From positions 1-32,198 of the forward strand of contig JAVEXH010000001.1 of NCBI GenBank assembly GCA_034004175.1: 32,198 nucleotides of DNA. Direction: 5' to 3'. A program made the position numbers and the translations under genes. The notes beneath the pieces were generated by a model. The model was not told where the DNA came from. It did no database searches and saw only the letters and a program-made list of their open reading frames with translations. The DNA is from Spirochaetia bacterium (GTDB lineage Bacteria; Spirochaetota; Spirochaetia; Treponematales; UBA12059). Shown here piece by piece: positions 4,251 through 29,694 of the stretch (position 1 is its first letter; every line of letters begins with the position of its first letter).

Positions 4251-4256
4251 TGCACC

Positions 4257-5687: not shown

Positions 5688-5714
5688 CTGTTCTGAGTCA
5701 GATCGTATAGTAGC

Positions 5715-6941: not shown

Positions 6942-6962
6942 TGTTCATAGTGTATGCGGTCA

Positions 6963-8486: not shown

Positions 8487-8621
8487 AAAGACCACCTTTT
8501 GCTGTATACAGGAATGCCACGGATGATCGGAATGTATTCCCACCCTCCGTGGCCTTTTTGCCCGCAGGCTGTTGAAAAAGCGGTAGCCCCTCAACAGCCT
8601 GCTCTTTCTACCGGAACACTA

Positions 8622-9752: not shown

Positions 9753-9788
9753 AATCTCCTTACCTCCGTTTGGTTGAAAACTTGCACC

Positions 9789-9817
9789 ATTATCACCCTG
9801 TTGTCCTGGTTTCTGAA
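9789..9817 (-). promoter_or_regulatory. candidate promoter of the chvE-gguAB transporter genes (TTCAGA-N17-GATAAT)
   Basis: On the minus strand, TTCAGA (9817-9812), a 17-nt spacer and GATAAT (9794-9789), ~37 nt upstream of the chvE ATG. The weak -35 would fit activator dependence on the adjacent AraC-type regulator. Sequence inspection only. Confidence 0.3.
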
Positions 9818-9896
9818 ATCGTAAACTTTTGACAATAAGCGGTACTTTCTGGAGAGTGTGCTGTCTCAAGCCAGCTGTATGGGTAAAAAAGCGATG

Positions 9897-13908: not shown

Positions 13909-14855
13909 AGGCTGCTCCTGTCCACAATCTCCACGCCGGTATCCACGGAGGTGGAGGTATAGCCCGTGGTATACAACTCGGTCAGGGATCTGATTGCTTC
14001 GTACCCGATGCGCTCCGGATTGACTGCTACGCTTCCGACCAGTATTCCCTTGCGGATGTACTCCAGTATGGCAGGTTCCTTGCCGAAGCCGATGAGCTGC
14101 ACCCTGCCCACCAGGTTCATGTCGATGAGGGCCTGGGCTGCAGCGATGGTGTCTGCGGCATCCGTGAAGACGATGGTGTTTATCTTCGTGTCCGTGCGGA
14201 ACAGGCGGTAGATCAGTTCCTCGGCATCCAGAGGATTGAGTCCTGTCCGGAGTCCTGCGATTGGAGCTGCCAGGTTGCCTTCCAGCACCGCGGTGATGCC
14301 CATCTCCACCAGTTCCCTTTCTCCGAGTATGCCCGGAGATTTGTCACTGTACACTACCGCGAGACGCAGAGGGGTTGGCGCTGTGCTTGCAACGACGGCT
14401 CCCATGCGCCGGCCGATGTCAAAACTGTTGGTGCCTATGTAGAACCAGGGTTGGTCACTGGGGATGTTGTGGTTGATGAGCACCAGGGGAATCTTCCTGG
14501 CTGCCAGTTTTTCCAGCTGGACCAAGGCAAGGTTGTCGTCGATATAGGGACAGACCACCACACCATCCACACCGCTGTATGAAGCCATGGCAAGTTCATT
14601 CTTGTCTGGATCGATGGAATGGAATGACAGGACGGCGCCGGCCTCCTCTGCGGCCTGCTGGGCTCCCTGGATTATTCTAAGGAAGAAAGAGTCACGATTG
14701 TCCGGCAGGTACAGGGCAAAATGGTAGGCCGGGCCGGGCTCCGGTGGTTCCGAACCCCGGAGGTACAGGCGGCGTACCAGGGTGAGTGACATTGAAAGAG
14801 CCAGAACGGAAAGGAGGGCGAACAGGATGATGCCGACGCGGACGAGGTTTTTCAC
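13905..14855 (-). CDS. membrane-anchored periplasmic-binding-protein-like (PBP-1/LacI-type sugar-binding fold) protein
   Basis: One N-terminal TM (VRVGIILFALLSVLALSMSL) followed by a PBP-1-like domain (FALYLPD..., VDGVVVCP, PLVLINH, VGFGKEP). The track ORF start (14984) would overlap the upstream gene by 83 nt. I prefer GTG at ~14855 (or TTG/GTG at 14888-14894) after that gene's stop at 14902. Confidence 0.65.
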   Translation of the reverse strand: MKNLVRVGIILFALLSVLALSMSLTLVRRLYLRGSEPPEPGPAYHFALYLPDNRDSFFLRIIQGAQQAAEEAGAVLSFHSIDPDKNELAMASYSGVDGVVVCPYIDDNLALVQLEKLAARKIPLVLINHNIPSDQPWFYIGTNSFDIGRRMGAVVASTAPTPLRLAVVYSDKSPGILGERELVEMGITAVLEGNLAAPIAGLRTGLNPLDAEELIYRLFRTDTKINTIVFTDAADTIAAAQALIDMNLVGRVQLIGFGKEPAILEYIRKGILVGSVAVNPERIGYEAIRSLTELYTTGYTSTSVDTGVEIVDRSSL

Positions 14856-14901
14856 CGGGGCAGTATACCCCCCCTTTTTGGCGGGCACAAGCAAATGAAG
14901 A

Positions 14902-15924
14902 CTAGGGTCTGTGTCCGCGTGCGAAGGTTCCCATGGCCATGACATTGGCTTCAGGTGAATCGCCTGGCAGTTCGCAGCCTGCACCGACTATCCACTTCTG
15001 GTTGCCTGCATCGTGCAGGCAGTCCGACAGGGTCCGGTGGACATCCTCGGGTGTGCCTCCTCGGACCACCGAGACGGTATCGATGTTACCCAGGAGTATG
15101 CGGTCAGGACCAAGGGCAGCGCGCGCCTTGGCGACGGGAGAGAGGGTATCAAGGTCTATGATATCGTAGGGTACGTCCACAAGGAGGGGCATGAGTTCCA
15201 TGGTGTTTCCACAGATATGAAGTCTGGCCAGCGCACCGGCCTCATGGATCGCGGTTACGATGGTCTTATGGTGTTTCAGGGTGAATTCGACAAAGATATC
15301 CGGCCCCATCAGGGACGAAGCGGCATCTCCGACGCCGATCAGATCTGCCCCCGCCTGTATCTGGGCCAGGGCAAAGCTGATGGCCTGCCGGGTGGTAAAC
15401 TCGAAGAGTTCCCTGACAAAGTCCGGATCGTCGTAAAAGTCCATCATGAGCCGCGATAGTCCCCGGAGGTCGGCCCCTTCAGCGCAGGGGCCTTCGATCC
15501 AGCCCTCTACCAGCAGCGTTCCACTGACCGCGGAAGCCAGGCCGGCCACCGCTTCCAGCCGGTTGGACATACGCTTGCCCTCCCCGGGGTCGATGATCTT
15601 CAGGGAAGCCAGACGGCTCTTGTCCAGGAGGAAGGCCTTCGCATCATCATTGGCCGGGGGCTCGTCATCGTAGAAGATTACCCCTCCACCGAGGTCGGAG
15701 GCCTCCACCGCCGGATCGGAAATGGCGGATACATGATCCGCGCCATAGCGTTCTGCGAAGGCCAACTGCCCCTTGACCAGCGCATGGTGGTCTGTGGCGT
15801 AGAGCAGGTATGGAACACCGATGCCCCTGGCAGCGAAACTCATGGTGATGGGCATGAAGGGTATACGATCTCCCACACCTCCAGCGATGACTGATCTGAT
15901 CAGTCCAGCTCCGTTCATCGGCAT
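14902..15924 (-). CDS. uroporphyrinogen-decarboxylase-family protein, MtaA/MtbA/CmuA-like methylcobamide methyltransferase (MT2)
   Basis: 340 aa with the URO-D TIM-barrel family look. Putative Zn ligands as in MtaA-type enzymes: RLHICGNT (His-x-Cys) and GAGCELP. AAAGGGGA SD 5-6 nt upstream of the ATG. Confidence 0.75.
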   Translation of the reverse strand: MPMNGAGLIRSVIAGGVGDRIPFMPITMSFAARGIGVPYLLYATDHHALVKGQLAFAERYGADHVSAISDPAVEASDLGGGVIFYDDEPPANDDAKAFLLDKSRLASLKIIDPGEGKRMSNRLEAVAGLASAVSGTLLVEGWIEGPCAEGADLRGLSRLMMDFYDDPDFVRELFEFTTRQAISFALAQIQAGADLIGVGDAASSLMGPDIFVEFTLKHHKTIVTAIHEAGALARLHICGNTMELMPLLVDVPYDIIDLDTLSPVAKARAALGPDRILLGNIDTVSVVRGGTPEDVHRTLSDCLHDAGNQKWIVGAGCELPGDSPEANVMAMGTFARGHRP

Positions 15925-16157
15925 CTTTGTCCCCTTTCAGTATCTGCGCATGACTGTCTTCGGCATGTGGCTGTTGTTATACTGCGGAAATACCGGCTCT
16001 GCTCCTCGTTTATTGCTTGATTATAACGGAATGTTGCTGTCTTGGGTTGTCCTGCTGTGCTGCAAGCCAAGGAATCGGGATGATCAGTGGAGAATGAAGG
16101 TGCGGAGTAGGGGGTGTATGGCAGCCAGACCTCCGGATCCGGCTGCCATATTCCGGA

Positions 16158-16619
16158 TCAGATGGCTCCTGAACTCTTGCGTTCGTTCTGGCCTATCTCG
16201 AAGGCTTGCTGGGAAATGATGCGGCCTTGGCGCTCTATGAGGGCCTTTACCACGTCACCGATGGAGATGACACCGACCAGTTTGCCGTTCTCCTTGACCG
16301 GGAGGTGTCGGAAATGATGGGCAGTCATAAGATCCATGCAGTTTTCTATGGAATCCGAGGGGTCTGCATAGACGATTTTCTTGGTCATAACCTCTTTTAC
16401 TATGGTCGTATCACAGGAATTGGCCTTGAGTATTATCTTTCGGGCAAAATCACGCTCCGAGAAAATGCCGGCTACTTCACCTGAAGCATCAAGCACGAGG
16501 ATGGCCCCGATGTTGTGTTCTGCCATGACTTCAAGGGCTTTCATGATGCCGGTTTCCGGCGTGACGCTGACTACTTCTGTTCCCTTTGAAGCGAGGATGT
16601 CCTTTACCTTCTCCACCAT
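16158..16619 (-). CDS. stand-alone CBS-pair domain protein
   Basis: 153 aa with two CBS repeats (VVSVTPETGIMKALEVMAEHNIGAILVLD...GIFSERD and VYADPSDSIENCMDLMTAHHFRHLPV...GVISIGD). AGGAGG SD. Divergent from the 13-gene operon. Confidence 0.85.
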   Translation of the reverse strand: MVEKVKDILASKGTEVVSVTPETGIMKALEVMAEHNIGAILVLDASGEVAGIFSERDFARKIILKANSCDTTIVKEVMTKKIVYADPSDSIENCMDLMTAHHFRHLPVKENGKLVGVISIGDVVKALIERQGRIISQQAFEIGQNERKSSGAI

Positions 16620-16752
16620 GCATGCACCTCCTGTGCGGCCCTGAGGCCGGCATGTTCTACGAGAAAACCCTAGTTTCCCGATGTATAGTCTGATTCAATA
16701 TACTGTTTGGCGATCAATACTGCAAGGAAATAGCGTTTTTTACATATTTCTG

Positions 16753-16780
16753 TTTACATATGTTTAACCTGAGCTATACT
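16753..16780 (+). promoter_or_regulatory. candidate sigma70-type promoter of the 13-gene operon (TTTACA-N16-TATACT)
   Basis: TTTACA at 16753-16758 and TATACT at 16775-16780, ~50 nt upstream of ATG 16832. TTTACATAT occurs twice as a direct repeat (16739-16747, 16753-16761). Confidence 0.35.
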
Positions 16781-16831
16781 GTCATAGAAATTTTGACCCG
16801 CTCCGGCGGGTATGCATCGAGGGGGAATCCT

Positions 16832-17329
16832 ATGATGACGATCAAGGCTCGAGTGCTGGGTTTCCTGGGTTTGTGGGCTGTGTGGCTTCTGCTGACGGCT
16901 CCCTGGACCACCCAGGAGGCTGTTGCGGGTGCACTGGTAGCGCTTCTTGTCTCCCTGTTGCCACTGTCAGGGGCATCACCACTTGGTGACCTGAAGCTGA
17001 GTCCGAAGGCCTTGGCCTCCCTGGTGGTGTATGTGTTTGTCTTCATCAAAGCCCTGGTGCAGTCCAATCTTGATGTAGCCTTCCGGGTGCTTCATCCGAG
17101 ACTGCCTATCGATCCGGGCATCGTGAAGGTAAAGACCAGGCTGAAGACCCCCTTGGGACGCCTGTTGCTTGCCAATTCCATAACCCTGACTCCAGGGACC
17201 ATAACCGTGGAGATGCACGGTGATGATCTGTACATCCACTGGATAAAGGTGGCCGACCCGGATCCGGAGGCTGCAACCGCGGCCATCGTCGGGAACTTCG
17301 AGAAGTATCTGGAGGTGATCTGTGGCTGA
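16832..17329 (+). CDS. MrpE/MnhE-like subunit (MbhA/MbxA position)
   Basis: Two N-terminal TMs plus the family motif NSITLTPGTITVE. Preferred start is ATG 16832 (GAGGGGG 6 nt upstream) rather than track start 16760. Confidence 0.8.
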   Translation: MMTIKARVLGFLGLWAVWLLLTAPWTTQEAVAGALVALLVSLLPLSGASPLGDLKLSPKALASLVVYVFVFIKALVQSNLDVAFRVLHPRLPIDPGIVKVKTRLKTPLGRLLLANSITLTPGTITVEMHGDDLYIHWIKVADPDPEAATAAIVGNFEKYLEVICG

Positions 17330-17582
17330 TGCGGTGTTTTACGTGGCCGTTGGCATTGCCGTACTGGCCCTGCTGCTGTCCGGCATACGTTTTGCCCTCG
17401 GGCCCTGGGCTATCGACCGGACCGTTGCCCTGGATGCCATGACCATACTGGCAACCTCCCTGATAGTGGCCTTTGCGCTTCTGTCCGGCAGGCGGATCTA
17501 CATCGACGTAGCCATGGTCTATGGCTTGGTCGGCTTTGCCGGTGTGGTGGCGGTGGCCCGCTACCTGGAAGGAGGCTTGTGA
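17322..17582 (+). CDS. MrpF/PhaF-like subunit (MbxB position)
   Basis: 86 aa, 3 TM, typical MrpF length and pattern (LGPWAIDRTVALDAM...YIDVAMVYGLVGF). GTG start has GGAGG 6 nt upstream and overlaps the previous stop by 8 nt. Confidence 0.8.
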   Translation: MADAVFYVAVGIAVLALLLSGIRFALGPWAIDRTVALDAMTILATSLIVAFALLSGRRIYIDVAMVYGLVGFAGVVAVARYLEGGL

Positions 17583-17959
17583 TGCTTGCCGTCATCGGAG
17601 CCTTTGTCAGTCTGACCGGCGCGGTGTTCTTCCTGCTTGCGGCCATAGGCCTCTTGCGCATGCCTGATGCCCTCAACCGCATGCAGGCAGGCACCAAAGC
17701 CACTACCCTGGGATCGATCCTTTTCCTTTTCGGCATAGGCATGATGCAACCCGGTTATCTGGGCCGGGTATTCATTCTTGTGGTCTTCATAGTGCTTACC
17801 AACCCGGTCAGTTCCAACGCCCTTGCACGGGCCGCCCATGCCAACAGGAAGCGTATCGGTGCCAGCCTGTCGATCGACGCCCTGGCCGATGATGAAGCTG
17901 CCATAGCGGCTGAAGACAGGAAAGCCGGCGGAAACAAGGAGGCAGTCCATGGTGCTTGA
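17582..17959 (+). CDS. MrpG/MnhG-like subunit (MbxC position)
   Basis: MnhG signature LRMPDALNRMQAGTKATTLG. ATG 17582 lies 6 nt after GGAAGGAGG (TGATG overlap); GTG 17579 is an alternative. Confidence 0.8.
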   Translation: MLAVIGAFVSLTGAVFFLLAAIGLLRMPDALNRMQAGTKATTLGSILFLFGIGMMQPGYLGRVFILVVFIVLTNPVSSNALARAAHANRKRIGASLSIDALADDEAAIAAEDRKAGGNKEAVHGA

Positions 17960-18275
17960 TATCATGCTACTGTCCGCAGGAGCCATCATGGTCGCCGCAG
18001 GCATAGGCGCTGTCCTGGCGAGGAGCCTGCTCGTCTCCATCATATTGTCCGGCGGCGTAAGCCTGGTGGCCAGCCTGGTTTTCCTGCTCATCGGCGCTCC
18101 TGATGTAGCCATGACCGAGGCTGCAATCGGCTCGGGCCTGACCACCGTGGTCTTCCTGTATGCCCTGTCCCGGGCCAGGCAGGCCGATGACGAGGACTCC
18201 GATGCTGCCGAGATCGGTGCCTCGCCCGTAGTAGCTGAAACCGGGACAAACCAGGAACAGGGAGGCCGGACATGA
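17949..18275 (+). CDS. MbhD/DUF4040-like subunit (MrpA C-terminal-like; MbxD position)
   Basis: 108 aa, 3 TM, motif GAPDVAMTEAAIGSGLTTV characteristic of the MrpA-C/MbhD family. AAGGAGG SD. Confidence 0.75.
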   Translation: MVLDIMLLSAGAIMVAAGIGAVLARSLLVSIILSGGVSLVASLVFLLIGAPDVAMTEAAIGSGLTTVVFLYALSRARQADDEDSDAAEIGASPVVAETGTNQEQGGRT

Positions 18276-18970
18276 TGCGAAGATTCCTTGTTCTGGCTGT
18301 GATCATCGCCCTTGGTGTGGCGATGTGGCCTCTGGTGATGGGTGCCGGGGTTGTCGATGCACCTGCTGCCCTGCCTTCTGCCTACCTGGACGGCGCTCCG
18401 AAGGACTTCGGGGCGGCCAATGTGGTTACCGCCATTGTGGTCAGTTACCGCGGCTTTGATACCTTGGGAGAGGTGGCCGTGCTGTTCGCAGCTACCGCCG
18501 GTGTTGGTAGCCTGTTGTCGCGCAAGCGGCTTGGGACCGGCCTGCCGGCCAGCGGACGCAAGCACGGCACTGAGATCCTGGGAACCGCCAGCAGGCTGTT
18601 GTCCAGCCTCCTTGTCATGTTCGGTGTATACATCTTCATGCATGGACACCTGACCCCGGGCGGCGGTTTCCAGGGCGGTGTGGTCATAGCTACGGCCATG
18701 TTGCTGGCCTTGCTGTCCAACCCTGATTCCCACCTGGCCCACGGTGCCATGACCGCAGTTGAGTCGTTGTCCGGGGCGGCCTACGTAGCCCTGGCCTTGC
18801 TGGGAGCCTTCCTCGGGCTGGGCTTCCTGGATCCACGGATCCTTCCCCCGGGTTCCGTAGGTGCCCTGGTAAGTGCGGGAACCATTCCACTCATCTATTC
18901 TGTCATCGGGCTCAAGGTCGGCGCCGAGCTGTCCGGCATCCTGGATGCACTGAAAGGAGACAGGACATGA
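18272..18970 (+). CDS. MnhB/MrpB-domain subunit (MbxF position, with N-terminal MbhE-like helix)
   Basis: MnhB motifs NVVTAIVVSYRGFDTLGE and GHLTPGGGFQGG. ATGA-type overlap with the previous gene. GGAGG SD. Confidence 0.8.
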   Translation: MMRRFLVLAVIIALGVAMWPLVMGAGVVDAPAALPSAYLDGAPKDFGAANVVTAIVVSYRGFDTLGEVAVLFAATAGVGSLLSRKRLGTGLPASGRKHGTEILGTASRLLSSLLVMFGVYIFMHGHLTPGGGFQGGVVIATAMLLALLSNPDSHLAHGAMTAVESLSGAAYVALALLGAFLGLGFLDPRILPPGSVGALVSAGTIPLIYSVIGLKVGAELSGILDALKGDRT

Positions 18971-19338
18971 ACATGTTAGACTTCCTTGCCCAGCTGAACC
19001 CCGTTGCGGTTCCCGGTGCCATACTCATACTGGTGGGGCTGTGGGGCGTACTGGCCAGGCCCAACCTGTTCAAGATTGCCGTGGCCTTCTGCGTCCTTGA
19101 GACCGGTGTGAACATGCTGATCCTGTCCGTCGGGTACATCCGTGGCCGTACGGCACCCATCTACGATGCGGGTGCCCCGACCGCTGCGCGTATGACCGAT
19201 CCGGTGCCCCAGGCCCTGGTCCTGACTGCCATTGTCATCGGACTTGCGGTTACCGCCCTCATGCTCAGCTATGCAGTGCGCCTGCGCAGCGGCGGTGGCG
19301 CTTCTTCCATAGAAGCCTACGGAGAAGAAAAATGGTAA
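18967..19338 (+). CDS. MnhC/MrpC, NuoK-like subunit (MbxG position)
   Basis: 123 aa, 3 TM with an acidic residue in a TM (CVLETGVNMLIL), as in the NuoK/MrpC family. AAGGAG SD 7 nt upstream. Confidence 0.75.
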   Translation: MNMLDFLAQLNPVAVPGAILILVGLWGVLARPNLFKIAVAFCVLETGVNMLILSVGYIRGRTAPIYDAGAPTAARMTDPVPQALVLTAIVIGLAVTALMLSYAVRLRSGGGASSIEAYGEEKW

Positions 19339-22300
19339 ACCCCCTCTACTTCTTCGCCGCTTCCATGGCGGTAGCCTTCATCCTGCCCCTGGCTGACAAG
19401 CTTGGCAGACGGCTGTCCTTGTTCATACTGTATGCCGTAACGGCAGCCTGGGCAGCGGCTGGAGCCTCCTGGCTGCTGGCCCTGCTTCAGGATGGTTTCC
19501 AAAGTGCACTGCAGAGCGGCGCTGCCACCGACTTCGGTACTGCCGGCTTCGGCGCTCCCCTGGCCATTGTGCTCAGGGTAGGGCTGGTTGAGGCTGCAGC
19601 GGTACTGGCCATAGGTCTTGTAGGCCTGTTGTCCGCTGCCTTCATGCACCGCGACCTGCACAAGGCACCTCTGGGTGGCTCCATGGCCTTCATCATGGCA
19701 GTCATGGGCCTTGCAGGCATCGTCCTGACCAGGGACCTCTTAAACCTGTTCGTGTTCCTGGAAATCTCCGCCATTGCCACCTATGGACTCATAGGCTTTG
19801 ATGACCGCAGGCCTGCCCTGCGCTCGGCCTTCAAGTACATGATGGCCGGCGGCATTGCCAGCGCCCTGTACCTGATAGGCGTCATCTACGTGTACCGCTT
19901 CGGGGACACCCTGAACCTGGACATAGCCGCCGCCGCCTTGGCTGCAAGTGGCACCGCCGGCCTCGGCAGCGCCGCCGGTACGGTTGCCATCTTCTTCCTG
20001 CTGGCAGCCCTGCTGGTGGAGCTGAAGCCCTTCCCGGCCAATGGCTGGGGTATCGATGTCTACGAAACCGCCAATCCCGGTGTGGCTGCCCTGCTGTCCG
20101 GGGCCTCGGCTACCGCCCTGGTGGTGGCGCTCTGGAAGCTGCTGCCCATCCTGGGCACTGCCCACCTGGCCATAGTGGCAGGCAGCGGGCTGGCTACCTT
20201 TGCGGCTGCCAACCTGGCCGGTGCCCGCCAGAGCGGTACCAGGCGTATGCTTGGCTACTCCTCGGCCGCCCAGATAGGCCTCGTAACCGCAGTGGTGGCC
20301 CTGGTGAAGCTTTTGAACCTCGGCGACTCCGGCTTCATGCTGATGGTGGCCGGGGGTCTGACCCTGAACCACCTCCTGGCCAAGACCGGCCTCTTCCTGC
20401 TTTCCGGCATGTTGGGTGACGACGACAGCAAGGCTATCATGTCGCCCCTTACCCTGGCGGTGGCCGGCATGCTGGCCCTTGGCCTGGTAGGCCTGCCTCC
20501 CTTCTCCGGCTTCTGGGCCAAGTGGCAGTTGGTGCAGGCCCTGGCCTCCGGCGGGCATTTCTGGATCATCGTCATAGTACTGGGCGGAAGCCTGGTGGAA
20601 GCCTTCTATATATTCCGCTGGCTTGGCCGTCTTGCAAAAGCCAGGCAGGCTGCCGCTGATCCACTGGCTGCCAGTCTGGCCGATGCCGGCCTCCTGAGGG
20701 CTGGCCGGCAACTAGCCGGCCCGGCCCTGATGGCCGTGGCTCTGGCTGGCTTCGGTGTGCTGGCTGGCCTGGATGCGTTGGCTGGGTTGGAAGTGCTGAC
20801 TGGGGCCGGCGGGAATGCCGCTGTTGCCGGTCTTGCCGGATACCTCCTCTGGGCGCCTTACCTGGCCGTGGCGATGCTGTTCCTGGTGGACCGGGCTCCC
20901 GGCTGGTTCAAGGGGTTGTTGTCCCTCGCGGCGATTGCCGGTTTCGGCTGGCTGGCCTGGGACGGGCTGGATGCACTGCGGCAGTTCTTCGCGGTTATGC
21001 TGCTCGGGGGCGGGGCCATGTACGCTGTGGCTGCGCTCCGCAAGGGCGGAGCCAGACCGGGGCTGCATCCGCTGATGACCATGGTTACCCTGTCACTTGG
21101 TGCAGTGCTGGTGGCGCAGAGCCCTCTGGGCTTCTTCTTTGCCTGGGAAACGATGACGCTGTCCAGCTGGCTCCTGGTACTCCGGGGCCGCAGAGCCGAG
21201 AAGCCAGCCCTGGCCTACATAGTCTTTGGCCTCGGTGGTGCCTTCCTGTTGATGACCGGCCTGGCAGCTGGCGGGCTTGGGACAGCCGGACTCGGGATGG
21301 CCGGGATGGCTGCCGCAGGCAGTTCCGCAACCGCAGCCTGGCCCTTTGCGCTGGTGCTCGTAGGTATTCTGGTGAAGACCGGTGTGCTGGGCCTGCATGT
21401 GTGGCTGCCGGGCTCTTATGCCGAGGCAGACGACGAGGTGTCCGGCCTCCTGTCGGCTTCCCTGTCAAAAGCGGCGGTCTTTGCGCTCTTTGCCCTGGTT
21501 CTGGCCAATGGAGTACCTGGAGCCCTGGCTCTTGGTCCCTGGGCCTGGCGCGCCTTGGGCTGGGTAGGCCTTGTCACCGCCATGATAGGCGCCCTGTACG
21601 CCATCTACCAGGAAGACATCAAGCTTACCCTGGCCTGGTCTTCCATGGGACAGATAGGCTATGTGGTGCTGGCCTTTGCGGTGATGGACCACGCAGGCTG
21701 GACTACCGCACTGTACCTGGCCCTGAACCATTTCCTGTACAAGTCCATGCTGTTCCTGGCCATTGCCGGGGTCATCCAGCGGACGGGAACGCGCAACATG
21801 TACGAGATGGGCGGGCTCATCAAGAAGATGCCCCTGTCCTTCCTTACGGTGCTGATGGCCATCATCGCCCTGTCCGGTGTGCCGCCCCTCTCCGGCTTCG
21901 GAGCCAAGTGGCTGCTGTATTCCACCCTGATCAGCAAGGGCTGGTATCTTGAGGCTGCAGCTGCCTTCTTTGCCAGCGGTGTGGCCTTCCTGTACCTGTA
22001 TCGACTGATACACTCCATCTTCCTGGGCCAGCCCAAGTCGGAACACAAGGATATCCGGGAAGCTCCATTGGCCCTCATCCTGCCCCAGGTCGGCCTGATG
22101 GCCGTCCTGATGGCGGTGTCGGTCTTCCCGTCCCTTATGCTCAACCCGATACTGGCGATTGCCGGCAACAGCTTCGAGCCTATCTTCCGCTTCGCAGGTT
22201 CCGCCCTGCAGTCTCCCCTTGGCTACTGGAACGGCACCCTGACCATGGTGGTAACCGGCGTGGTCTTCGTCCTCTGCCTGGTGTGGATGATGGTCAACCT

Positions 22301-22583
22301 TCACAACCCGCAATCGGTGAAGCAGTTCAACATTGTGTTTGCAGCCGAGCGGCCCCTGAGGCCCAATACCACCCATTACGCCTGGGCCTTCTTCGAGCCA
22401 TACCGTGACGCACTGGGCTTTTTGACCAGATCCAGAGTCGAGCGCTTCTGGTCGACTTTTGGTACCGGTATCAACGGAATCGGAGGAGTCCTGCGAAGGC
22501 TGTACACGGGCAACGGCCAGACTTACGCACTCCACGTCGTCATCTATGTGGTGGCACTCTACTTTTTCATGGGGGCCTTCTGA
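19332..22583 (+). CDS. fusion of two antiporter-like (NuoN/MrpD-type + NuoL/M/HyfB-type) proton-pump modules (MbxH-MbxH' equivalent in one polypeptide)
   Basis: 1083 aa. Module 1 (~aa 1-455): LFVFLEISAIATYGLIGF, ELKPFPANGWGIDVYETANPGVAALLSG, PPFSGFWAKW. Module 2 (~aa 560-1083): WETMTLSSWLLV, LVKTGVLGLHVWLPGSY, WSSMGQIGYV, NHFLYKSMLFLAIAG, PPLSGFGAKW. No stop or frame change between them. Confidence 0.85.
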   Translation: MVNPLYFFAASMAVAFILPLADKLGRRLSLFILYAVTAAWAAAGASWLLALLQDGFQSALQSGAATDFGTAGFGAPLAIVLRVGLVEAAAVLAIGLVGLLSAAFMHRDLHKAPLGGSMAFIMAVMGLAGIVLTRDLLNLFVFLEISAIATYGLIGFDDRRPALRSAFKYMMAGGIASALYLIGVIYVYRFGDTLNLDIAAAALAASGTAGLGSAAGTVAIFFLLAALLVELKPFPANGWGIDVYETANPGVAALLSGASATALVVALWKLLPILGTAHLAIVAGSGLATFAAANLAGARQSGTRRMLGYSSAAQIGLVTAVVALVKLLNLGDSGFMLMVAGGLTLNHLLAKTGLFLLSGMLGDDDSKAIMSPLTLAVAGMLALGLVGLPPFSGFWAKWQLVQALASGGHFWIIVIVLGGSLVEAFYIFRWLGRLAKARQAAADPLAASLADAGLLRAGRQLAGPALMAVALAGFGVLAGLDALAGLEVLTGAGGNAAVAGLAGYLLWAPYLAVAMLFLVDRAPGWFKGLLSLAAIAGFGWLAWDGLDALRQFFAVMLLGGGAMYAVAALRKGGARPGLHPLMTMVTLSLGAVLVAQSPLGFFFAWETMTLSSWLLVLRGRRAEKPALAYIVFGLGGAFLLMTGLAAGGLGTAGLGMAGMAAAGSSATAAWPFALVLVGILVKTGVLGLHVWLPGSYAEADDEVSGLLSASLSKAAVFALFALVLANGVPGALALGPWAWRALGWVGLVTAMIGALYAIYQEDIKLTLAWSSMGQIGYVVLAFAVMDHAGWTTALYLALNHFLYKSMLFLAIAGVIQRTGTRNMYEMGGLIKKMPLSFLTVLMAIIALSGVPPLSGFGAKWLLYSTLISKGWYLEAAAAFFASGVAFLYLYRLIHSIFLGQPKSEHKDIREAPLALILPQVGLMAVLMAVSVFPSLMLNPILAIAGNSFEPIFRFAGSALQSPLGYWNGTLTMVVTGVVFVLCLVWMMVNLHNPQSVKQFNIVFAAERPLRPNTTHYAWAFFEPYRDALGFLTRSRVERFWSTFGTGINGIGGVLRRLYTGNGQTYALHVVIYVVALYFFMGAF

Positions 22584-23497
22584 TGGAAACTTCGATACTC
22601 GCCCGCATCGGCTATGCCCTGGTATCCCTGTTCGTCATAACCAACTACGGCCTGCTGCTCATAGGATCCATGGCGCGGATAAGTGCCAAGGTCCAGGGCC
22701 GTGTGGGCCAGCCGGTCTACCAGCCTTACCTGGACATCATCAAGAGCACGGCCAAACGCAACACCATAAGCCATGGCATCATGTTCTACCTGGGGCCTGT
22801 CTTCCGCCTGGCAGGCGGGGTAGGCACCTTCATGTTCATACCCATGGTGTACGGTTCGGTGCTGTTCCGGAACTTCAGCGATTCCGGTGACCTCCTGCTG
22901 GTGATGTACTTCATCTTCTTCGGCCAGCTTGGCATGGCCCTGGGAGCCAGTGAAGGCGGCCACCCCTACAGTGCCCTCGGCGTAAGCCGGGGCCTGGCCC
23001 AGATGACGGCCTTTGAAGTGCCCTTTGCCCTGTCGGTGATAGCGGTGGTCATACAGTACGGCACCCTGGATATTACCGCCATAGTTGGGGCCCAGCAGGG
23101 CGGGTTCATGAACTGGACCCTGTTTAACAACCCGGTGGCCGTGCTTGCCGCGATGATAGCCTTCCTGGGCATGTCGGGTCACAACCCTTTCAGTGTCGTC
23201 ATAGCACCCCAGGAAATACCCATAGGGCCGCCGACGGAATACCAGAGCAACCTCCTGGGCATGCTGCAGACCAACCGGGCCATCTTCAACGGCGCCAAGC
23301 TGGTTCTGTACATGAACCTCTTCTTCGGCGGTGGTACGAACATTGTCATTGTTGTGATAAAAACCTTCTTGATATATTTCGTGAATGTGTTCGTGGGGCA
23401 GGCCTTCCCACGGCTCCGGACCGACCAGTCGATCCGGTTCTTCCTCGGCGTGCCCACACTCATAGGCATTGCCGGCGTCATCATAGCTGTGCTGTAG
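22583..23497 (+). CDS. NuoH/HycD/MbhM-like membrane subunit
   Basis: 304 aa, ~8 TM. N-terminal pattern RISAKVQGRVGQPVYQPYLDIIK matches the R-x-A-x-Q-x-R-x-GP...QP-x-D-x-xK motif of the NuoH/HycD family. TGATG overlap with the preceding gene. Confidence 0.85.
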   Translation: METSILARIGYALVSLFVITNYGLLLIGSMARISAKVQGRVGQPVYQPYLDIIKSTAKRNTISHGIMFYLGPVFRLAGGVGTFMFIPMVYGSVLFRNFSDSGDLLLVMYFIFFGQLGMALGASEGGHPYSALGVSRGLAQMTAFEVPFALSVIAVVIQYGTLDITAIVGAQQGGFMNWTLFNNPVAVLAAMIAFLGMSGHNPFSVVIAPQEIPIGPPTEYQSNLLGMLQTNRAIFNGAKLVLYMNLFFGGGTNIVIVVIKTFLIYFVNVFVGQAFPRLRTDQSIRFFLGVPTLIGIAGVIIAVL

Positions 23498-23507
23498 GAG
23501 GCGCCTC

Positions 23508-24173
23508 GTGTCAGACAAACAAATCAAACCGGCGCCTTCGGCGACAACAAGAGCTGAATCCTTGACAACGCCGCTGGCCAACGAGGGCCTGCCGCCTGAA
23601 GAGCATGCGTACTTCTGCGATGTGCCGCCCCGGGAATACGAACCTGCCACCAAGGTGGTGGAGGATTTCTGGAACTGGGCCCGGGCCCAGAGCCTGTGGG
23701 TGCTGGGCTTCGGTACCGGCTGCGGCGCCGTGGAACTGCGGCCCCTGATGACCAGCCGCTTCGACATGTACCGCTATGGCATACAGCCGCGGCCAACGCC
23801 CAGACAGTCATCGGTCTTTGTCATCGGCGGCTACGCCTCGGTGAAGACCCTGAAGCGCATCGTCCGCAGCTACGAGCAGATGATGGGACCCAAGTTCGTG
23901 CTGGCCCTTGGCAGCTGCACCATCAACGGCGGCATGTACTGGGACAGCTACAACACCATCAAGCGCATAGACCAGTACATACCCGTGGATGTGTACATCG
24001 CGGGCTGCATGCCCAGGCCCGAGGCTCTGCTGGCAGGCTTCCAGGAGTTGAAGAAAATCATCCGGGCAGGCCAGGCAGACGGCCAGAACGAATACGCCCG
24101 GAACTTCGAATGGTACAAAGAGAACCAGAAGAAGGTCATCAAGGACTGGAACATGCCGGATTACAACTGGTAG
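23508..24173 (+). CDS. NuoB/HycG/MbhJ-like small subunit with incomplete Cys ligand set and an N-terminal extension
   Basis: Colinear by eye with E. coli NuoB: NWARAQSLWVLGFGTGCGAVE / TPRQSS / GSCTINGGMY / IPVDVYIAGCMPRPEA. GTG start has AGGAGG 6 nt upstream. Confidence 0.85.
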   Translation: MSDKQIKPAPSATTRAESLTTPLANEGLPPEEHAYFCDVPPREYEPATKVVEDFWNWARAQSLWVLGFGTGCGAVELRPLMTSRFDMYRYGIQPRPTPRQSSVFVIGGYASVKTLKRIVRSYEQMMGPKFVLALGSCTINGGMYWDSYNTIKRIDQYIPVDVYIAGCMPRPEALLAGFQELKKIIRAGQADGQNEYARNFEWYKENQKKVIKDWNMPDYNW

Positions 24174-24183
24174 GAGGCCGCAT

Positions 24184-24729
24184 ATGATCAAACTTGCTAC
24201 TGAACTGGCGGCCCGTTACGGCTCCCGGGGCTGGCGGAACCAGCGCCCGGATCTGGCCGTCGTGCAGATCGACCTTGCCAGGCTGCATGACGCCCTTGCC
24301 TGGCTCAGGGACAACGCGGGGTACACCCATCTGTCCTTCATGACCGCGATCGACAATATCGAACGCGGTGTCTTTACCCTGACCTACACCCTGCGTAACC
24401 ACGCCTGGAATGATGGCAAGGGCCACAGCCTGATGGTCCATGCCGATGTGGACCGCAGCAAGCCCGTGGTTGATTCCATCCACCGGCTCTGGGGCCAGGC
24501 CTGGACCTACCAGCGGGAGATGAAGGAATGGTTCGGCATCGACTTCCCCGGCAGCCCCAGGGTTGATGAGGAGTTCGTGCTGGAAGGCTGGCAGGGACCG
24601 CCCATGATGCGCCGCGATTTTGACAGCCTGGTCTACAGCGAAGCCACCTATACCGAGCGTCCCGGCCGGGTTACCCACGACCCCGAAACCTACATGAAAG
24701 AGAAGCTGTACCCGGAGGCCCAGGCATGA
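24184..24729 (+). CDS. NuoC/30-kDa/MbhK-like subunit
   Basis: 181 aa. C-terminal family motif WTYQREMKEWFGIDFPGSP (ERE-x-x-D-x-FGI-x-F-x-GHP type). AGGAGG SD. Confidence 0.8.
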   Translation: MIKLATELAARYGSRGWRNQRPDLAVVQIDLARLHDALAWLRDNAGYTHLSFMTAIDNIERGVFTLTYTLRNHAWNDGKGHSLMVHADVDRSKPVVDSIHRLWGQAWTYQREMKEWFGIDFPGSPRVDEEFVLEGWQGPPMMRRDFDSLVYSEATYTERPGRVTHDPETYMKEKLYPEAQA

Positions 24730-25889
24730 AAAAGCAAACTCAACACATTGTGCCTCCTGCCGAACGCGCTGACATTGACCTGGACTCAGGCAAGTACCTG
24801 GTTATGTGGCAGGGGCCCAACCACCCCGGCATAACCGGCAACATGTCCCTGCGGCTGGTAATTGAAGGAGACACCGTAGTCGACTGCGAGACCCACGTGG
24901 GCTACCTGCACCGGGGTTTCGAGAAGCTCATGGAACGACGGTTGTGGATGCAGAACTTCCCGCTGGTGTGCCGCATCGCGGTGCCCGAGCCTGACTTCAA
25001 CGAATACTGCTACGCTGCCGCGCTGGAGGAACTCGCTGGCGTGGAGGTTCCCGACAAGGCCATATGGCTGCGCACCCTGTCCCTGGAGATGATACGCCTG
25101 GCCAGCTTCCTGATGTGGATAGGCGGGCAGGCCGGCGCCTTCGGGCACGGCACCATTGGCCAGTGGACAGTAACCATGCGCGACTACGTGCTGGACCTCT
25201 TCGAGGAACTGACCGGCGGCCGCATCTACCACATGTATATCATACCCGGCGGTGTCCGTGGCGATGTGCCTCCCGGTTTCCTGAAGCATGTGCTACAGAC
25301 CATGGACATCATCCAGAAAAACCTGGATGACATTGAACTGGTAATGTTCCATAACGTGGTCTACAAGATGCGTGCCCAGGGCCTGGGCTACATACCGCCG
25401 GAATGGATCGACCAGTACGGCATCACCGGGCCCAATGCCAGGGCTGCAGGTGTCAATCGTGACCTGCGCAAAGACCTTGGCTATCTGGCCTATCCGCGGC
25501 TCGACTTCCAGCCCATAACCAGCACGGTCTCCGATGCCTACGAGCGGTCCAGGCTGCGTCTGCTGGAAACGCATCAGGCTATCGACCTGATACGCCAGAT
25601 AGTGGCCAACCTGCCGTCAGATGGCCCCTTCCGGGAGAAGCTGCCCAACCCCTTGTACTGGAAGATACCCGCCGGCGAGACCTATGTGGCAGCCGAATGC
25701 ACCCGGGGTGAGTACGGTTTCTATGTGGTTTCCGATGGCTCGGACAAGCCCCGGCGGGTCGCGGTGCGAGGACCCAGCTATACCCATGCGGTGTCTGTGA
25801 TGGAGCGCCTGGTGCGGGGCGTGAACATAGCAGACGTGGCCGGCCTGATGGTCAGCCTTCATACCTATCCGCCCGAAGTCGAGAGGTGA
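24726..25889 (+). CDS. NuoD/49-kDa/[NiFe]-hydrogenase-large-subunit-like protein lacking all Ni-Fe cysteine ligands
   Basis: 387 aa. Family motifs: GPNHPG, HVGYLHRGFEKLME, GGRIYHMYIIPGGVR, ECTRGEYGFYVVSDG, RVAVRGPSYTH. Ends ...SLHTYPPEVER. ATGA overlap with the NuoC-like gene. Confidence 0.85.
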   Translation: MKKQTQHIVPPAERADIDLDSGKYLVMWQGPNHPGITGNMSLRLVIEGDTVVDCETHVGYLHRGFEKLMERRLWMQNFPLVCRIAVPEPDFNEYCYAAALEELAGVEVPDKAIWLRTLSLEMIRLASFLMWIGGQAGAFGHGTIGQWTVTMRDYVLDLFEELTGGRIYHMYIIPGGVRGDVPPGFLKHVLQTMDIIQKNLDDIELVMFHNVVYKMRAQGLGYIPPEWIDQYGITGPNARAAGVNRDLRKDLGYLAYPRLDFQPITSTVSDAYERSRLRLLETHQAIDLIRQIVANLPSDGPFREKLPNPLYWKIPAGETYVAAECTRGEYGFYVVSDGSDKPRRVAVRGPSYTHAVSVMERLVRGVNIADVAGLMVSLHTYPPEVER

Positions 25890-25893
25890 GGCA

Positions 25894-27750
25894 ATGGATA
25901 TAAAGGACTTCATCGCGCCCTTTGCGGTGTGGAAGCGGGCTTTCGAGAAACCCTTCACGGTAAAGAAGCCCATAGACGAGCGCCCTGGCGCACCACGGTA
26001 CCGGGGCTTCCATATAAACGATTCAGCCAGGTGTGTGGGTTGCGGTACCTGCGAAGCCATCTGCATGAACAATGCCATAGATATGGTTCCGGTTGACGAT
26101 TTGTTGCCGGATGGTGGTGATTCGGGCCTGCGGCCCCGGGTGGACTACGGCCGCTGCTGCTGGTGTGCCCTCTGCGTGGACATCTGTCCCTCGGGCTCTC
26201 TTGGCATGAGCAATGAGTATGTCTGGGTAGACCGCGACCCCGAAGTATTCCGCTACACCCCCGGTGTGGAGGCCAAGCCCTGGGACGGCGCCGAACTGGG
26301 TTACCGCCGGGCCGATGGCTACCGCCTGCTTGAAGAAGAACGAGTGGACATGCCCGAGCTGGACCACCACGAAGCAGTGAAATCCTTCCTTGAACTGGTT
26401 CGGGGCTACTCCCGGGAGCAGGCCGAGAAGGAAGCCGACCGCTGCGTATCCTGCGGGGTCTGCGTGGCATCCTGCCCGGCCCATATGGACATACCAGGCT
26501 ACATCCGGGCTGTGCGTGAGGGCGATCTGGAGGAAGGCCTGCGGCTGCTGTACGAGACCAATCCCTTTCCCGAGGCCTGTGGCCGCATCTGTACCCACCT
26601 CTGCGAGGCCGCTTGTTCAGTAGGATCGGGGATGAATGCCGACGGAACTCCGACAGACCCGGTGGCTATACGCTGGCTGAAACGCTACATAGCCGACCAG
26701 GTGGAGCTGGCCGATTACGGCAAGGCCCTGCCCAGGGCCGAAGCTCCCACCGGCAAGAAGATTGCCATAATCGGTGCAGGACCCGGCGGCTTGGCCGCAG
26801 CCTATTATCTGGCCCTGCTTGGCCATGGCGTTACGGTATTCGAGAAAGACGAAGCCGCCGGCGGCATGCTGCGCTACGGCATCCCTGAATACCGCCTGCC
26901 GTACCCCGCCCTGGACAAGGACATAGCCTGGATCACCTCCCTGGGTGTAGAGATACGTTACGGAACGGCAGTGGGCAAGGATCTGAGCCTGGCGTCCCTG
27001 TACAGCGACTACGATGCCGTATTCCTGTCCACCGGCCTTACGGTGGCCTACAAGCTGGATGTGCCTGGCGACAGCCACCCCCGGGTGCTGGACGGCGTGG
27101 CTGTACTTGCCGCCGCAACCAGAGGCGAGCCCCTAGGGCTTGGCCAGAAAGTGGCTGTGGTCGGCGGCGGCAACGTCGCCATGGACGCCGCACGGACGGC
27201 CCTGCGCAACGGCGCCGAGGTGGACATAGTCTACCGCCGCCGGGAAGTGGACATGCCAGCGGACCCCGAAGAGATCATGGAAGCCAAGGCCGAAGGTGCC
27301 ACTCTCATAGCCCAGGCAATTCCCCTGGAAGTGAAGCCCGCAACCGGTCCCGGTGCCGGGCCGGTTGCTGCCGACAAGGCCGGGTCGGATGCCGCCGGCG
27401 AGACCGCCACCAAGGCAACTTTCGTCTGGAACCTGGCGGAGATGGTGCAGAAGGAGCCGGGCAAGCGCCCCGTTCCCGAGCCCATACCCGGTGCAGTGGT
27501 CGAGAAGACATACGACTCCATCATAGCCGCCATAGGCCAAGGCCCGGACCTGTCGTACGTGGCCGAATCCGATGGCATAGAGCTGCGTCGATACAAACCG
27601 GTGATCGGTCCCGATGGCCGCACCAGCCGTGCCACCGTTTTTGCCGGCGGAGACCTGACCAACGACCGCAAGGACGCCATCTCTGCCATAGCCGACGGCC
27701 ACCGCGCCGCCCTGGCCATGGATCGCCTCCTTGCCGGAAAGGAAGCCTGA
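25894..27750 (+). CDS. fusion protein: NuoI/MbhN-like 2x[4Fe-4S] ferredoxin domain + GltD/SudA/NfnB-like NAD(P)H-dependent FAD oxidoreductase
   Basis: aa 47-57 CVGCGTCEAIC and aa 88-99 CCWCALCVDICP (NuoI-type). aa 184-195 CVSCGVCVASCP and 229-241 CGRICTHLCEAAC (GltD N-terminal Fe-S region). KKIAIIGAGPGGLAAAYYL...EKDEAAGGMLRYGIPEYRLP (FAD site). KVAVVGGGNVAMDAART...VYRRR (NAD(P)H site). VFAGGDL...AIADGHRAALAMD. Confidence 0.85.
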   Translation: MDIKDFIAPFAVWKRAFEKPFTVKKPIDERPGAPRYRGFHINDSARCVGCGTCEAICMNNAIDMVPVDDLLPDGGDSGLRPRVDYGRCCWCALCVDICPSGSLGMSNEYVWVDRDPEVFRYTPGVEAKPWDGAELGYRRADGYRLLEEERVDMPELDHHEAVKSFLELVRGYSREQAEKEADRCVSCGVCVASCPAHMDIPGYIRAVREGDLEEGLRLLYETNPFPEACGRICTHLCEAACSVGSGMNADGTPTDPVAIRWLKRYIADQVELADYGKALPRAEAPTGKKIAIIGAGPGGLAAAYYLALLGHGVTVFEKDEAAGGMLRYGIPEYRLPYPALDKDIAWITSLGVEIRYGTAVGKDLSLASLYSDYDAVFLSTGLTVAYKLDVPGDSHPRVLDGVAVLAAATRGEPLGLGQKVAVVGGGNVAMDAARTALRNGAEVDIVYRRREVDMPADPEEIMEAKAEGATLIAQAIPLEVKPATGPGAGPVAADKAGSDAAGETATKATFVWNLAEMVQKEPGKRPVPEPIPGAVVEKTYDSIIAAIGQGPDLSYVAESDGIELRRYKPVIGPDGRTSRATVFAGGDLTNDRKDAISAIADGHRAALAMDRLLAGKEA

Positions 27751-28374: not shown

Positions 28375-29694
28375 ATGGAACGATTGCTTGTAAAGGAACT
28401 TGAGGCATGGAAAAGCCGACAAGGCAGGAAACCCCTGCTTCTCAAGGGCGTACGCCAATGTGGCAAGACGTATCTGCTCAGGGAGTTCGGCAAAGCACAT
28501 TTCAGTGATGTCGCATACTTCAATTTCGAGCTTACCCCAGCCCTTTCAGGTCTCTTTGAAATTGATCTGGATCCATCCCGCATCATCACTGAACTGGGTA
28601 TCCTGCAAGGGCAGAAGATCGAGACTGAGACAACCCTGATCATCTGGGATGAGGTACAGTTCTGCCCTAAGGCTCTGACCGCCCTCAAGTATTTCTCGGA
28701 GCTGGCCCCAGGGTATGCCTTGGCCTGTGCTGGCTCACTTCTGGGTGTGGCCTTGTCGAAACCCTCCTCTTTTCCGGTGGGTAAGGTTGATATCCTGGTT
28801 CTGCGGCCGATGGATTTCCGTGAGTTCCTGGTAGCAAGCCAGGAGAAGCAACTCATCGACTATGCAGCCGGTTTGCCTCCGGATGGGCAGCTTTCCCAAG
28901 CGTTGATTGACAAGTTTTTGGTAGCCCTCAGGATGTTCCAGATAATCGGCGGAATGCCTGAAGCAGTCTCAGCATGGCTACAGAACCGGAATATGGCTGA
29001 GGTGGAGAGAATACAGGATGCCATCCTGGCTAGCTATGAGCTTGATTTTGCCAAATATGCCCCTCCTGCGGATTTTCCGAAGCTCAAGCTGATATGGAAG
29101 AGCATCCCTGCCCAGTTATCCAGGGAAAGCGGGAAATTCCTGTACGGCCACGCAAAGCCGGGGGCACGGGCCAAGGATCTGAAGGACGCCCTGGGCTGGC
29201 TTACCGAGGCAGGCCTTGCATACAAGGTAGGAAGGGTAGAGAAACCAGCCTTCCCCTTGTCCGCCTATATGGACCAGAAAGCCTTCAAGCTGTACCTGGC
29301 GGATATCGGGTTGCTGCGCCGTCTGGCAGGAGTGCCGGGTTCTGTCATGCTCGACGGGAATACCCTGTACAGCGAGTTCAAAGGTGCTCTGATGGAAAAC
29401 TTTGTCCTGAATGAGTTGCTGCGCTTTCTGGGAGACCTGCCCAGCTACTGGACTTCCGGGAATCAGGCAGAGGTGGATTTTGTCTTCCAGTACCATGACA
29501 GCATCCTGCCCCTGGAAGTAAAAGCAGCGACGAATATTCGCTCCCGAAGTTTGGCTGCCTACAGGGAAAAGTACCGACCGCAACTGGCCTTGCGGACCTC
29601 ACTGATGGCGTGCAAGTCCGAGGATGGGCTGTTGAACATTCCGTTGTATCTCTTATGGAACATGGCTGTGTATGTGAGGAAGGTGCTTTCCTGA
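28375..29694 (+). CDS. AAA+ ATPase with C-terminal DUF4143 / PD-(D/E)xK nuclease-like domain
   Basis: Walker A GVRQCGKTYL and Walker B LIIWDEVQ. C-terminal EVDFVF...LPLEVKAA resembles a D...ExK restriction-endonuclease-fold motif. AAGGGG SD 8 nt upstream. Confidence 0.8.
   Translation: MERLLVKELEAWKSRQGRKPLLLKGVRQCGKTYLLREFGKAHFSDVAYFNFELTPALSGLFEIDLDPSRIITELGILQGQKIETETTLIIWDEVQFCPKALTALKYFSELAPGYALACAGSLLGVALSKPSSFPVGKVDILVLRPMDFREFLVASQEKQLIDYAAGLPPDGQLSQALIDKFLVALRMFQIIGGMPEAVSAWLQNRNMAEVERIQDAILASYELDFAKYAPPADFPKLKLIWKSIPAQLSRESGKFLYGHAKPGARAKDLKDALGWLTEAGLAYKVGRVEKPAFPLSAYMDQKAFKLYLADIGLLRRLAGVPGSVMLDGNTLYSEFKGALMENFVLNELLRFLGDLPSYWTSGNQAEVDFVFQYHDSILPLEVKAATNIRSRSLAAYREKYRPQLALRTSLMACKSEDGLLNIPLYLLWNMAVYVRKVLS

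Follow-up and report, generated by a model that had tools for sequence, protein, structure and literature searches.

The stretch of DNA analysed here (the window) covers 32,198 nucleotides of contig JAVEXH010000001.1 from the Spirochaetia bacterium assembly GCA_034004175.1, read on the forward strand. It contains a complete operon of twelve co-directional genes (16760-27750, +), abutting or overlapping and all with intact open reading frames. The gene under study (23508-24173, +) encodes a 221-residue MbsJ/NuoB-like small iron–sulfur subunit of the Pfam family PF01058. It starts with a GTG codon, preceded at a distance of six bases by an AGGAGG sequence (23496-23501) that overlaps the TAG stop (23495-23497) of the upstream NuoH-like gene. 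The translation holds exactly four cysteines, at positions 37, 72, 137 and 167.

An MbsJ-type subunit and its operon

The best PDB match of the 221-residue protein was 6u8y_J, the MbsJ subunit of Pyrococcus furiosus MBS (E = 9e-67). Alignment with Thermococcus kodakarensis MbsJ gave 54% identity over 163 residues with zero gaps, so the shortened MbsJ-type cluster loop is kept. Cys72, Cys137 and Cys167 align to MbsJ C28, C93 and C123, and Gly69 aligns to C25, with the loop length unchanged. Weaker matches were obtained with cyanobacterial and plastid NdhK (~1e-40), with NuoB/Nqo6/PSST (~1e-30 to 1e-35) and with the small subunits of group 4 hydrogenases, MbhJ and HycG (6cfw_J, 1.6e-22; 7z0s_G, 3e-16). 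By sequence homology, the protein is an MbsJ orthologue of a bacterial MBS/Mbx-type complex and not a degenerate NuoB. An earlier note on this DNA, made from the letters alone, had compared it with Escherichia coli NuoB, a framing that hid the family assignment.

The residues reported in that note were read correctly. Three of the four proximal-cluster cysteines are present (Cys72, Cys137, Cys167), with Gly73 in place of the second tandem cysteine. Complex-I-type relatives, represented by NdhK alignments and ~100 NuoB-type proteins, show G-x-S-C-C where the window protein has G69-T-G-C72-G73 (in GTGCGAVEL), and SPRQAD or SPRQSD where it has TPRQSS. The note overlooked that the first cysteine of the hydrogenase/MbsJ-type CxxC pair is also gone, being Gly69. 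Since both Gly69 and Gly73 replace cysteines, neither known arrangement for a fourth thiolate is present. The N-terminal extension with its lone Cys37 exists as described, although it is shorter than the 55 residues claimed: about 49 residues precede the core, with MbsJ homology starting at residue 49/50.

In P. furiosus MBS, the proximal cluster is held only by MbsJ C28, C93 and C123; relative to MBH, the cluster loop is shortened by three residues, so that MbsJ C25 is too distant to ligate, and subcomplexes carrying C25A or MbsL C85A/C385A stay active (PMC7684303). The iron without a cysteine ligand was proposed as the site of polysulfide reduction (PMC7684303). Because only three MbsJ cysteines ligate and C25 is dispensable, the three-cysteine site is an established hallmark of the family (PMC7684303). 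The core interpretation, a three-cysteine cluster with an open catalytic iron, is therefore already known from a solved and mutated homologue and is supported here by homology. The suggestion of the earlier note that such a cluster could itself be the catalyst matches this closest relative (PMC7684303), although its companion claim that the facing pocket is free of cysteines did not hold, as described below. Having lost the vestigial fourth cysteine, the window protein displays the three-cysteine feature more plainly than MbsJ does.

The operon contains the MBS/Mbx gene complement, that is, a Mrp-type module (E, F, G, MbhD, MbhE/B, C/K), the H/H' units, and M, J, K, L and N (Table 1). It also has the layout of mbx-like operons, in which Mrp and NuoH/B/C/D genes are followed by a gene for a NuoI-GltD-type flavoprotein. 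The stand-alone MbsN of MBS is absent, the MbsN-like domain being fused to a flavoprotein. Residues 5-120 of this 618-residue protein correspond to an MbsN/NuoI-like domain with two [4Fe-4S] clusters, and residues ~147-616 (~470 residues) to an NfnB/GltD-like module with flavin adenine dinucleotide (FAD), an NAD(P)H site and two further [4Fe-4S] clusters. Its PDB matches include 6u8y_N (1e-23), Thermotoga maritima NfnB (4ylf_B, 5e-77) and GltD (3e-49). Judged from cysteine motifs and homology, an uninterrupted series of cluster-binding motifs links the FAD/NAD(P)H site of the NfnB-like module with the proximal cluster.

Table 1. Features of the operon and of the MbsJ-like gene (positions in the window)
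Feature	Position	Strand	Basis
Mrp-type module: MrpE, MrpF, MrpG, MbhD-like, MbhE/MnhB-like and NuoK/MrpC-like genes	16760-19338	+	Pfam
Fused double antiporter-like subunit, 1083 aa (MbsH + MbsH')	19332-22583	+	PF00361, two stretches; NCBIfam
MbsM/NuoH-like membrane anchor	22583-23497	+	PF00146
MbsJ/NuoB-like subunit, 221 aa	23508-24173	+	PF01058
N-terminal extension, aa 1-49, variable except [FY]36-C37-x3-P41-x4-P46	23508-23654	+	conservation, codon substitutions
Cys37 codon TGC, within YFCDVPP	23616-23618	+	read from sequence
Cluster loop G69-T70-G71-C72-G73-A74 (then V-E)	23712-23729	+	sequence, PDB match, alignment of relatives
Gly69 codon GGT, replacing MbsJ C25	23712-23714	+	sequence, alignment
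Cys72 codon, ligand equivalent to MbsJ C28	23721-23723	+	alignment to MbsJ
Gly73 codon GGC, replacing the second Cys of the complex-I CC pair	23724-23726	+	sequence
TPRQSS, aa 97-102, at the site of SPRQAD/SPRQSD in complex-I-type subunits	23796-23813	+	alignment
Cys137 codon (GSC), ligand equivalent to MbsJ C93	23916-23918	+	alignment, PMC7684303
Cys167 codon (AGC), ligand equivalent to MbsJ C123	24006-24008	+	alignment, PMC7684303
MbsK/NuoC-like subunit	24184-24729	+	PF00329
MbsL/NuoD-like large subunit, 387 aa	24726-25889	+	6u8y_L, E = 1e-93
Large-subunit Cys82 codon (VC82RIA85VPE88PD)	24969-24971	+	conservation, hydrogenase alignment
MbsN/NuoI-like + NfnB/GltD-like fusion, 618 aa	25894-27750	+	Pfam Fer4_7, Fer4_20, Pyr_redox_2

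Conservation of the cluster site and the Cys37 arm

A census of the cluster site was made on 297 aligned NuoB/MbsJ-like proteins. Positions 69-72-73 read G-C-G in 138 of them, which form the main bacterial clade and include the window protein. The CxxC form, C-C-G, was found in 39 proteins from Thermococcales, Thermotogota and a Chitinispirillaceae/Deltaproteobacteria group; V-C-G occurs in six WOR-3 proteins and F-C-G in two others (P0140, P0141), and ~100 complex-I-type proteins carry x-C-C. Per-residue conservation was computed over the 137 G-C-G proteins that have the N-terminal region. G69, T70, G71, C72 and G73 are invariant among them, and A74 is kept in 135. The earlier note had named a second cysteine at position 73 of orthologues as grounds for rejecting its claim; none of the 137 relatives has one.

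A scan using one genome per species revealed at least 592 related loci. The GTGCGA motif is common to the best 80 of these, each a species-level genome, from Spirochaetota, Cloacimonadota, Bacteroidota, Magnetococcales, Magnetospirillum, Magnetovibrio, Thiothrix, Thiocapsa, Thiodiazotropha, Rhodoferax and Methylococcales; the nearest relatives among the matches listed are Treponema and Spirochaetes metagenome-assembled genomes with 80-91% identity. Gene order was identical in all related loci with enough flanking sequence, and is kept across Spirochaetota, Cloacimonadota, Bacteroidota, Proteobacteria, Thermotogota, WOR-3 and further lineages. The NuoI-GltD-type architecture likewise extends to Thermotogota, WOR-3 and others.

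This conservation settles whether the missing cysteine could reflect a sequencing or assembly error or a decaying gene. No point in favour of such an origin was found. The same loop, GGT...TGC GGC, is encoded in the 137 relatives and in 80 independent genomes, the operon frames are intact, and the codon substitutions are distributed as expected under purifying selection. The persistence of the motif rules out an error, and we regard this explanation, refuted by conservation, as having practically no probability left.

Several natural members of the family (P0061, P0070, P0094 and the WOR-3 proteins, e.g., P0127) contain only three cysteines in the whole protein, namely the three ligands, so no J-subunit cysteine can serve as a fourth ligand in them. 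These proteins support three-cysteine coordination as the family-wide functional state. Two other members of the collection were unusual. P0134 (668 aa) naturally joins NuoI, NuoB and NuoD in one chain; its CC motif is of the complex-I type, and its large-subunit domain ends in CPADHDR. P0128 (533 aa) is plant NdhK-like and repeats the same ~200-residue block, which looks like an assembly or gene-calling artefact.

The N-terminal extension is ~35-44 residues longer than the N-terminus of MbsJ and only ~9 residues longer than that of E. coli NuoB (residue 51 of the query is paired with residue 42 of the chain). Compared with 20 relatives, its substitutions at codon positions 1/2/3 number 102/147/288; because they concentrate at the third position, the extension is translated and under selection. 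Most of its columns are only 20-60% conserved, and its length and sequence vary. A short motif stands out among the 137 relatives: F/Y36 (100%), C37 (96%, Ser in 4%), P41 (100%) and P46 (94%), with the spacing from Cys37 to Cys72 fixed at 35 residues. The [FY]C[DEQN] signature was found in Spirochaetota, Cloacimonadota, Bacteroidota and Proteobacteria; the proteobacterial form is Y[YF]C[ED], preceded by a conserved GPDGxEFEVEPL segment. One database entry (P0064) begins at the residue equivalent to V50, and conservation marks this start as mis-called. A literature search for any mention of this N-terminal cysteine motif found none.

These features bear on the proposal, also made in the earlier note, that Cys37 is the fourth ligand: the arm would fold back and donate a thiolate, making the proximal cluster an ordinary four-cysteine electron-transfer cluster. 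Cys37 is the sole other cysteine in the protein, it is strongly conserved within a variable extension, at a fixed distance from Cys72 and near the invariant Pro41, and it occurs mainly in lineages that lack a C25 equivalent. The natural variants speak against such a role. Serine replaces Cys37 in P0061, P0070, P0094, P0114 and a Thiogranum protein (L055), and alanine replaces it in a Cloacimonadota protein (L051), so that the serine form is spread over at least three lineages and the alanine form is seen in one. Three of these serine variants (P0061, P0070, P0094) are among the three-cysteine proteins introduced above, and WOR-3 members lack the whole N-terminal arm. In addition, P. furiosus MBS functions with three ligands (PMC7684303). 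With Ser or Ala standing naturally at position 37 in several lineages, Cys37 is probably not an obligatory ligand, and the proposal is unlikely to hold as a general assignment; we consider a four-cysteine cluster completed by Cys37 improbable. A narrower version, with Cys37 as a replacement for the lost C25, is weakened by the same variants and by two proteins of one CxxC lineage (P0129, P0136) that carry a similarly placed N-terminal cysteine, so that a simple exchange does not fit.

Five of the six Cys37 replacements are serine, which suggests that a small polar side chain is needed at this position. The overall pattern would be compatible with an accessory thiol or with a contact of the hydrogen-bonding or hemilabile kind, and is less so with an essential nucleophile. 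Both L055 and L051, which lack Cys37, have a cysteine in the first helix instead (Cys58, NWCRA). Cys58 was found in 14 of the 137 relatives (P0123 and its kin among the carriers), some of which have Cys37 as well, and it may offer another location for the accessory thiol. An AlphaFold2 monomer model computed for the J subunit from 23 aligned sequences was of poor quality (mean predicted local distance difference test score, pLDDT, 58.7; extension 52-59) and was excluded from geometric arguments.

Large subunit, proposed function and its alternatives

The four positions that hold NiFe ligands in hydrogenases are A85, E88, Y381 and E384 in the large subunit of the window, none of them cysteine; in the alignment to 6u8y_L, the equivalent MbsL residues are C85, E88, C385 and D388. 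The two vestigial NiFe cysteines of MBS (MbsL C85 and C385) are thus both replaced. Among 72 orthologues, E88 and E384 are each kept in 71; 40 carry Cys and 31 carry Ala at position 85, and at position 381 Tyr is found in 69 and Cys in three. At the complex-I quinone-binding His and Tyr positions, the alignment to complex-I NuoD places Thr37 and Val86; these quinone-headgroup residues are numbered Nqo4 H38 and Y87 in PMC7684303.

The pocket is nonetheless not free of cysteines, contrary to the earlier note, because Cys82 lies three residues before the first NiFe position and is conserved in 71 of the 72 orthologues. By alignment, its counterpart in the large subunits of group-1 hydrogenases is residue 73 (E/Q; V-E73-R-I-C76), which sits between the NiFe site and the proximal cluster. 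P. furiosus MbsL has Leu at position 82 and Thermotogota have Pro; WOR-3 and the CxxC locus L084 have Cys. Since it is also found in this CxxC lineage, Cys82 is a bacterial acquisition not strictly tied to the loss of J-C69. Strict compensation for that loss would fit Thermococcales, Thermotogota, WOR-3 and the main clade and fails in L084. Three more cysteines of the window's large subunit are shared by the orthologues to varying degrees: Cys54 (45/72), Cys95 (40/72) and Cys325 (65/72, Ser in six).

Cys82 might instead be an inter-subunit fourth ligand of the proximal cluster, for which its near-complete conservation, the location of hydrogenase residue 73 and its presence in WOR-3, where no other candidate exists, can be adduced. 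Yet P. furiosus and Thermotogota, with Leu or Pro at this position, have the same MbsJ cluster loop, the L084 locus combines Cys82 with an intact CxxC, and the literature describes hydrogenase residue 73 as near the cluster and not as one of its ligands. We therefore give this assignment little credence.

Taken together, we propose, with a probability of about 0.65, that the protein belongs, as its MbsJ-type subunit, to an ion-translocating, Mrp-linked oxidoreductase of the MBS/Mbx kind in this spirochaete, whose open-iron site most likely reduces an S-S substrate in a reaction probably linked to NAD(P)H. In this scheme, C72, C137 and C167 would hold the proximal [4Fe-4S] cluster as in P. furiosus MBS, and the one iron without a cysteine from the J subunit would be the reactive site, placed at the top of a chamber formed by J with the large subunit and the NuoH-like anchor. 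The substrate would most likely be a sulfane/polysulfide-type S-S bond. Electrons would enter via the two MbsN-type clusters wired to the fused NfnB/GltD-like FAD module; owing to this wiring, NAD(P)H is a likely redox partner, possibly with ferredoxin alongside. Turnover would drive the H+/Na+ translocating Mrp-type arm. The Cys37 arm and Cys82 may be lineage-specific additions that line or approach the pocket, and they would probably tune or assist the site and not complete a four-cysteine cluster.

Several points weigh against this proposal. Electron transfer from NAD(P)H to polysulfide would leave little driving force for ion pumping, and the two well-conserved thiols, J-Cys37 and L-Cys82, might in principle reach the open iron. 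Annotation of the flanks revealed no sulfur-metabolism genes next to the operon in the window. A literature search for biochemical or structural work on a bacterial Mbx/MBS-like complex gave genome-based assignments only, and genome papers label the bacterial complexes as ferredoxin:NAD(P)+ oxidoreductases or putative sulfur reductases (PMC4758237, PMC9431562, bioRxiv 10.1101/322537).

The main rival for the overall function follows from the first of these labels. The complex would be an Rnf-like ion-translocating ferredoxin:NAD(P)+ oxidoreductase, with electrons passing only among ferredoxin, the MbsN clusters and the NfnB-like FAD, and with the three-cysteine proximal cluster serving in coupling or persisting as a vestige, non-catalytic in either case. 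The fused NfnB/GltD-like NAD(P)H module would suit this function, several genome papers assume it (PMC4758237; bioRxiv 10.1101/322537), and the absence of sulfur genes from the flanks agrees with it. Against it, MBH, MBS and complex I couple via chemistry in the chamber beside the proximal cluster, and an earlier ferredoxin:NADP+ assignment of Pyrococcus Mbx was itself superseded by sulfane reduction (PMC7684303). Elemental sulfur (S0) induces T. maritima mbxA 4.4-fold (PMC9431562). Moreover, strong purifying selection acts on the cluster loop and on the residues E88, Y381, E384 and C82 of the pocket, and such conservation of the pocket argues against a vestigial proximal site. We judge this alternative unlikely.

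A variant of the sulfane-reductase proposal, in our view quite unlikely, adds the two thiols, as new recruits of this widespread bacterial clade, to the chemistry. The open iron, together with J-Cys37 on a mobile arm and L-Cys82, would form an ion-pumping, NAD(P)H-linked and possibly bifurcating sulfane/disulfide reductase that receives its electrons via the fused NfnB-like module, and the cluster-assisted S-S or persulfide reduction would by analogy resemble that of ferredoxin:thioredoxin reductase or heterodisulfide reductase. Because the complex is present in Thiothrix, Thiocapsa, Thiodiazotropha and magnetotactic bacteria, one may speculate that such an enzyme, if real, could account for the anaerobic reduction of stored sulfur in bacteria of this kind.

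Related operons differ in their surroundings. In L084 (12152-14070), of the Chitinispirillaceae/Deltaproteobacteria type, a NuoI-NfnB-like gene is followed by genes for a Fer4 protein and for an NfnA/PyrK-like protein with FAD_binding_6, NAD_binding_1 and DHODB_Fe-S_bind domains, and then by a molybdopterin oxidoreductase gene and a ferredoxin gene. This arrangement hints that some Mbx-like complexes may work with a complete Nfn-type, possibly bifurcating, module. The MbsH and MbsH' equivalents are separate genes in Thermotogota (L081), in WOR-3 (L082), in L083, where the longer gene comes first, and in L084. A rubrerythrin gene directly follows the Thermotogota Mbx-like operon (L081:11476-11973), and none is found in the window; its position beside the Thermotoga mbx-like operon was remarked by Degli Esposti 2015 (PMC4758237).

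The flanks of the window operon (1-16700 and 28375-29694 (+)) are unrelated to it and offer no substrate clue among their genes. They encode an AAA_14/DUF4143 ATPase, an SDR protein, a DUF2269 membrane protein, a URO-D-like protein, a CBS-pair protein, a sugar ABC transporter with three periplasmic binding proteins, PTS EIIC-GAT, Fe-ADH and a HAMP-HD protein, as well as a two-component system consisting of an AraC-type response regulator and a histidine kinase.

That a site-differentiated [4Fe-4S] cluster itself catalyses sulfane reduction has been argued from a single archaeal enzyme, which still contains the fourth cysteine. Hundreds of bacterial genomes, mostly of mesophiles, encode orthologues that lack it, some of them with the three ligand cysteines only, and this provides independent evolutionary support for three-cysteine coordination as the functional state of the family. 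New observations are the complete loss of the vestigial fourth cysteine across a large bacterial clade, natural subunits with three cysteines only, the conserved [FY]-C-x3-P-x4-P arm and the conserved large-subunit Cys82. Culturable hosts are Spirochaeta isovalerica, Salinispira pacifica, Magnetovibrio blakemorei, Magnetospirillum sp. UT-4 and Thiothrix caldifontis.

Comparison with known systems

The closest known system is P. furiosus MBS, with which the window operon shares the subunit set and the Mrp-type membrane arm. The J subunit has the gapless, shortened loop TGCG(G/A)(I/V)E of MbsJ and the same three ligating cysteines, and both large subunits lack a NiFe site as well as the quinone-binding His and Tyr. 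Unlike MbsJ, which retains the non-ligating C25, the window protein has Gly69 and about 44 extra N-terminal residues carrying a conserved cysteine. MbsL C85 and C385 correspond to Ala85 and Tyr381 in the window, whose large subunit gains the conserved Cys82; MbsH and MbsH' are fused, and MbsN bears a C-terminal NfnB/GltD-like flavoprotein, so ferredoxin may not be the sole donor. The host bacterium is a mesophile. With an NAD(P)H input module, J-Cys37 and L-Cys82, the bacterial enzymes depart from MBS on the donor side as well as at the pocket.

An mbx-like operon with a GltD-related flavoprotein was earlier recorded in Thermotoga, Magnetococcus and other proteobacteria (Degli Esposti 2015, PMC4758237). 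The window operon is a member of this group, sharing the same operon with a GltD-like flavoprotein fused to or replacing NuoI. The Thermotogota members differ from it in that they keep the J-subunit CxxC, lack the N-terminal cysteine arm and have Pro at L82 and Cys at L85 and L381. Descriptions of bacterial mbx-like operons (PMC4758237, PMC9431562) make no mention of the Gly69/Gly73 state, the Cys37 motif or L-Cys82.

With NuoB/Nqo6/PSST of complex I, which carry cluster N2, the J subunit shares the PF01058 fold family and the second and third cysteine ligands. It differs in lacking the tandem CC and in having TPRQSS for SPRQAD, and its operon has no NuoEFG module and a large subunit devoid of the quinone-binding His/Tyr. 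MbhJ and HycG of group 4 [NiFe]-hydrogenases are homologous proximal-cluster subunits; compared with these enzymes, the window protein has lost the first cysteine of CxxC and has a loop of MBS length, and its partner large subunit holds none of the four NiFe cysteines.

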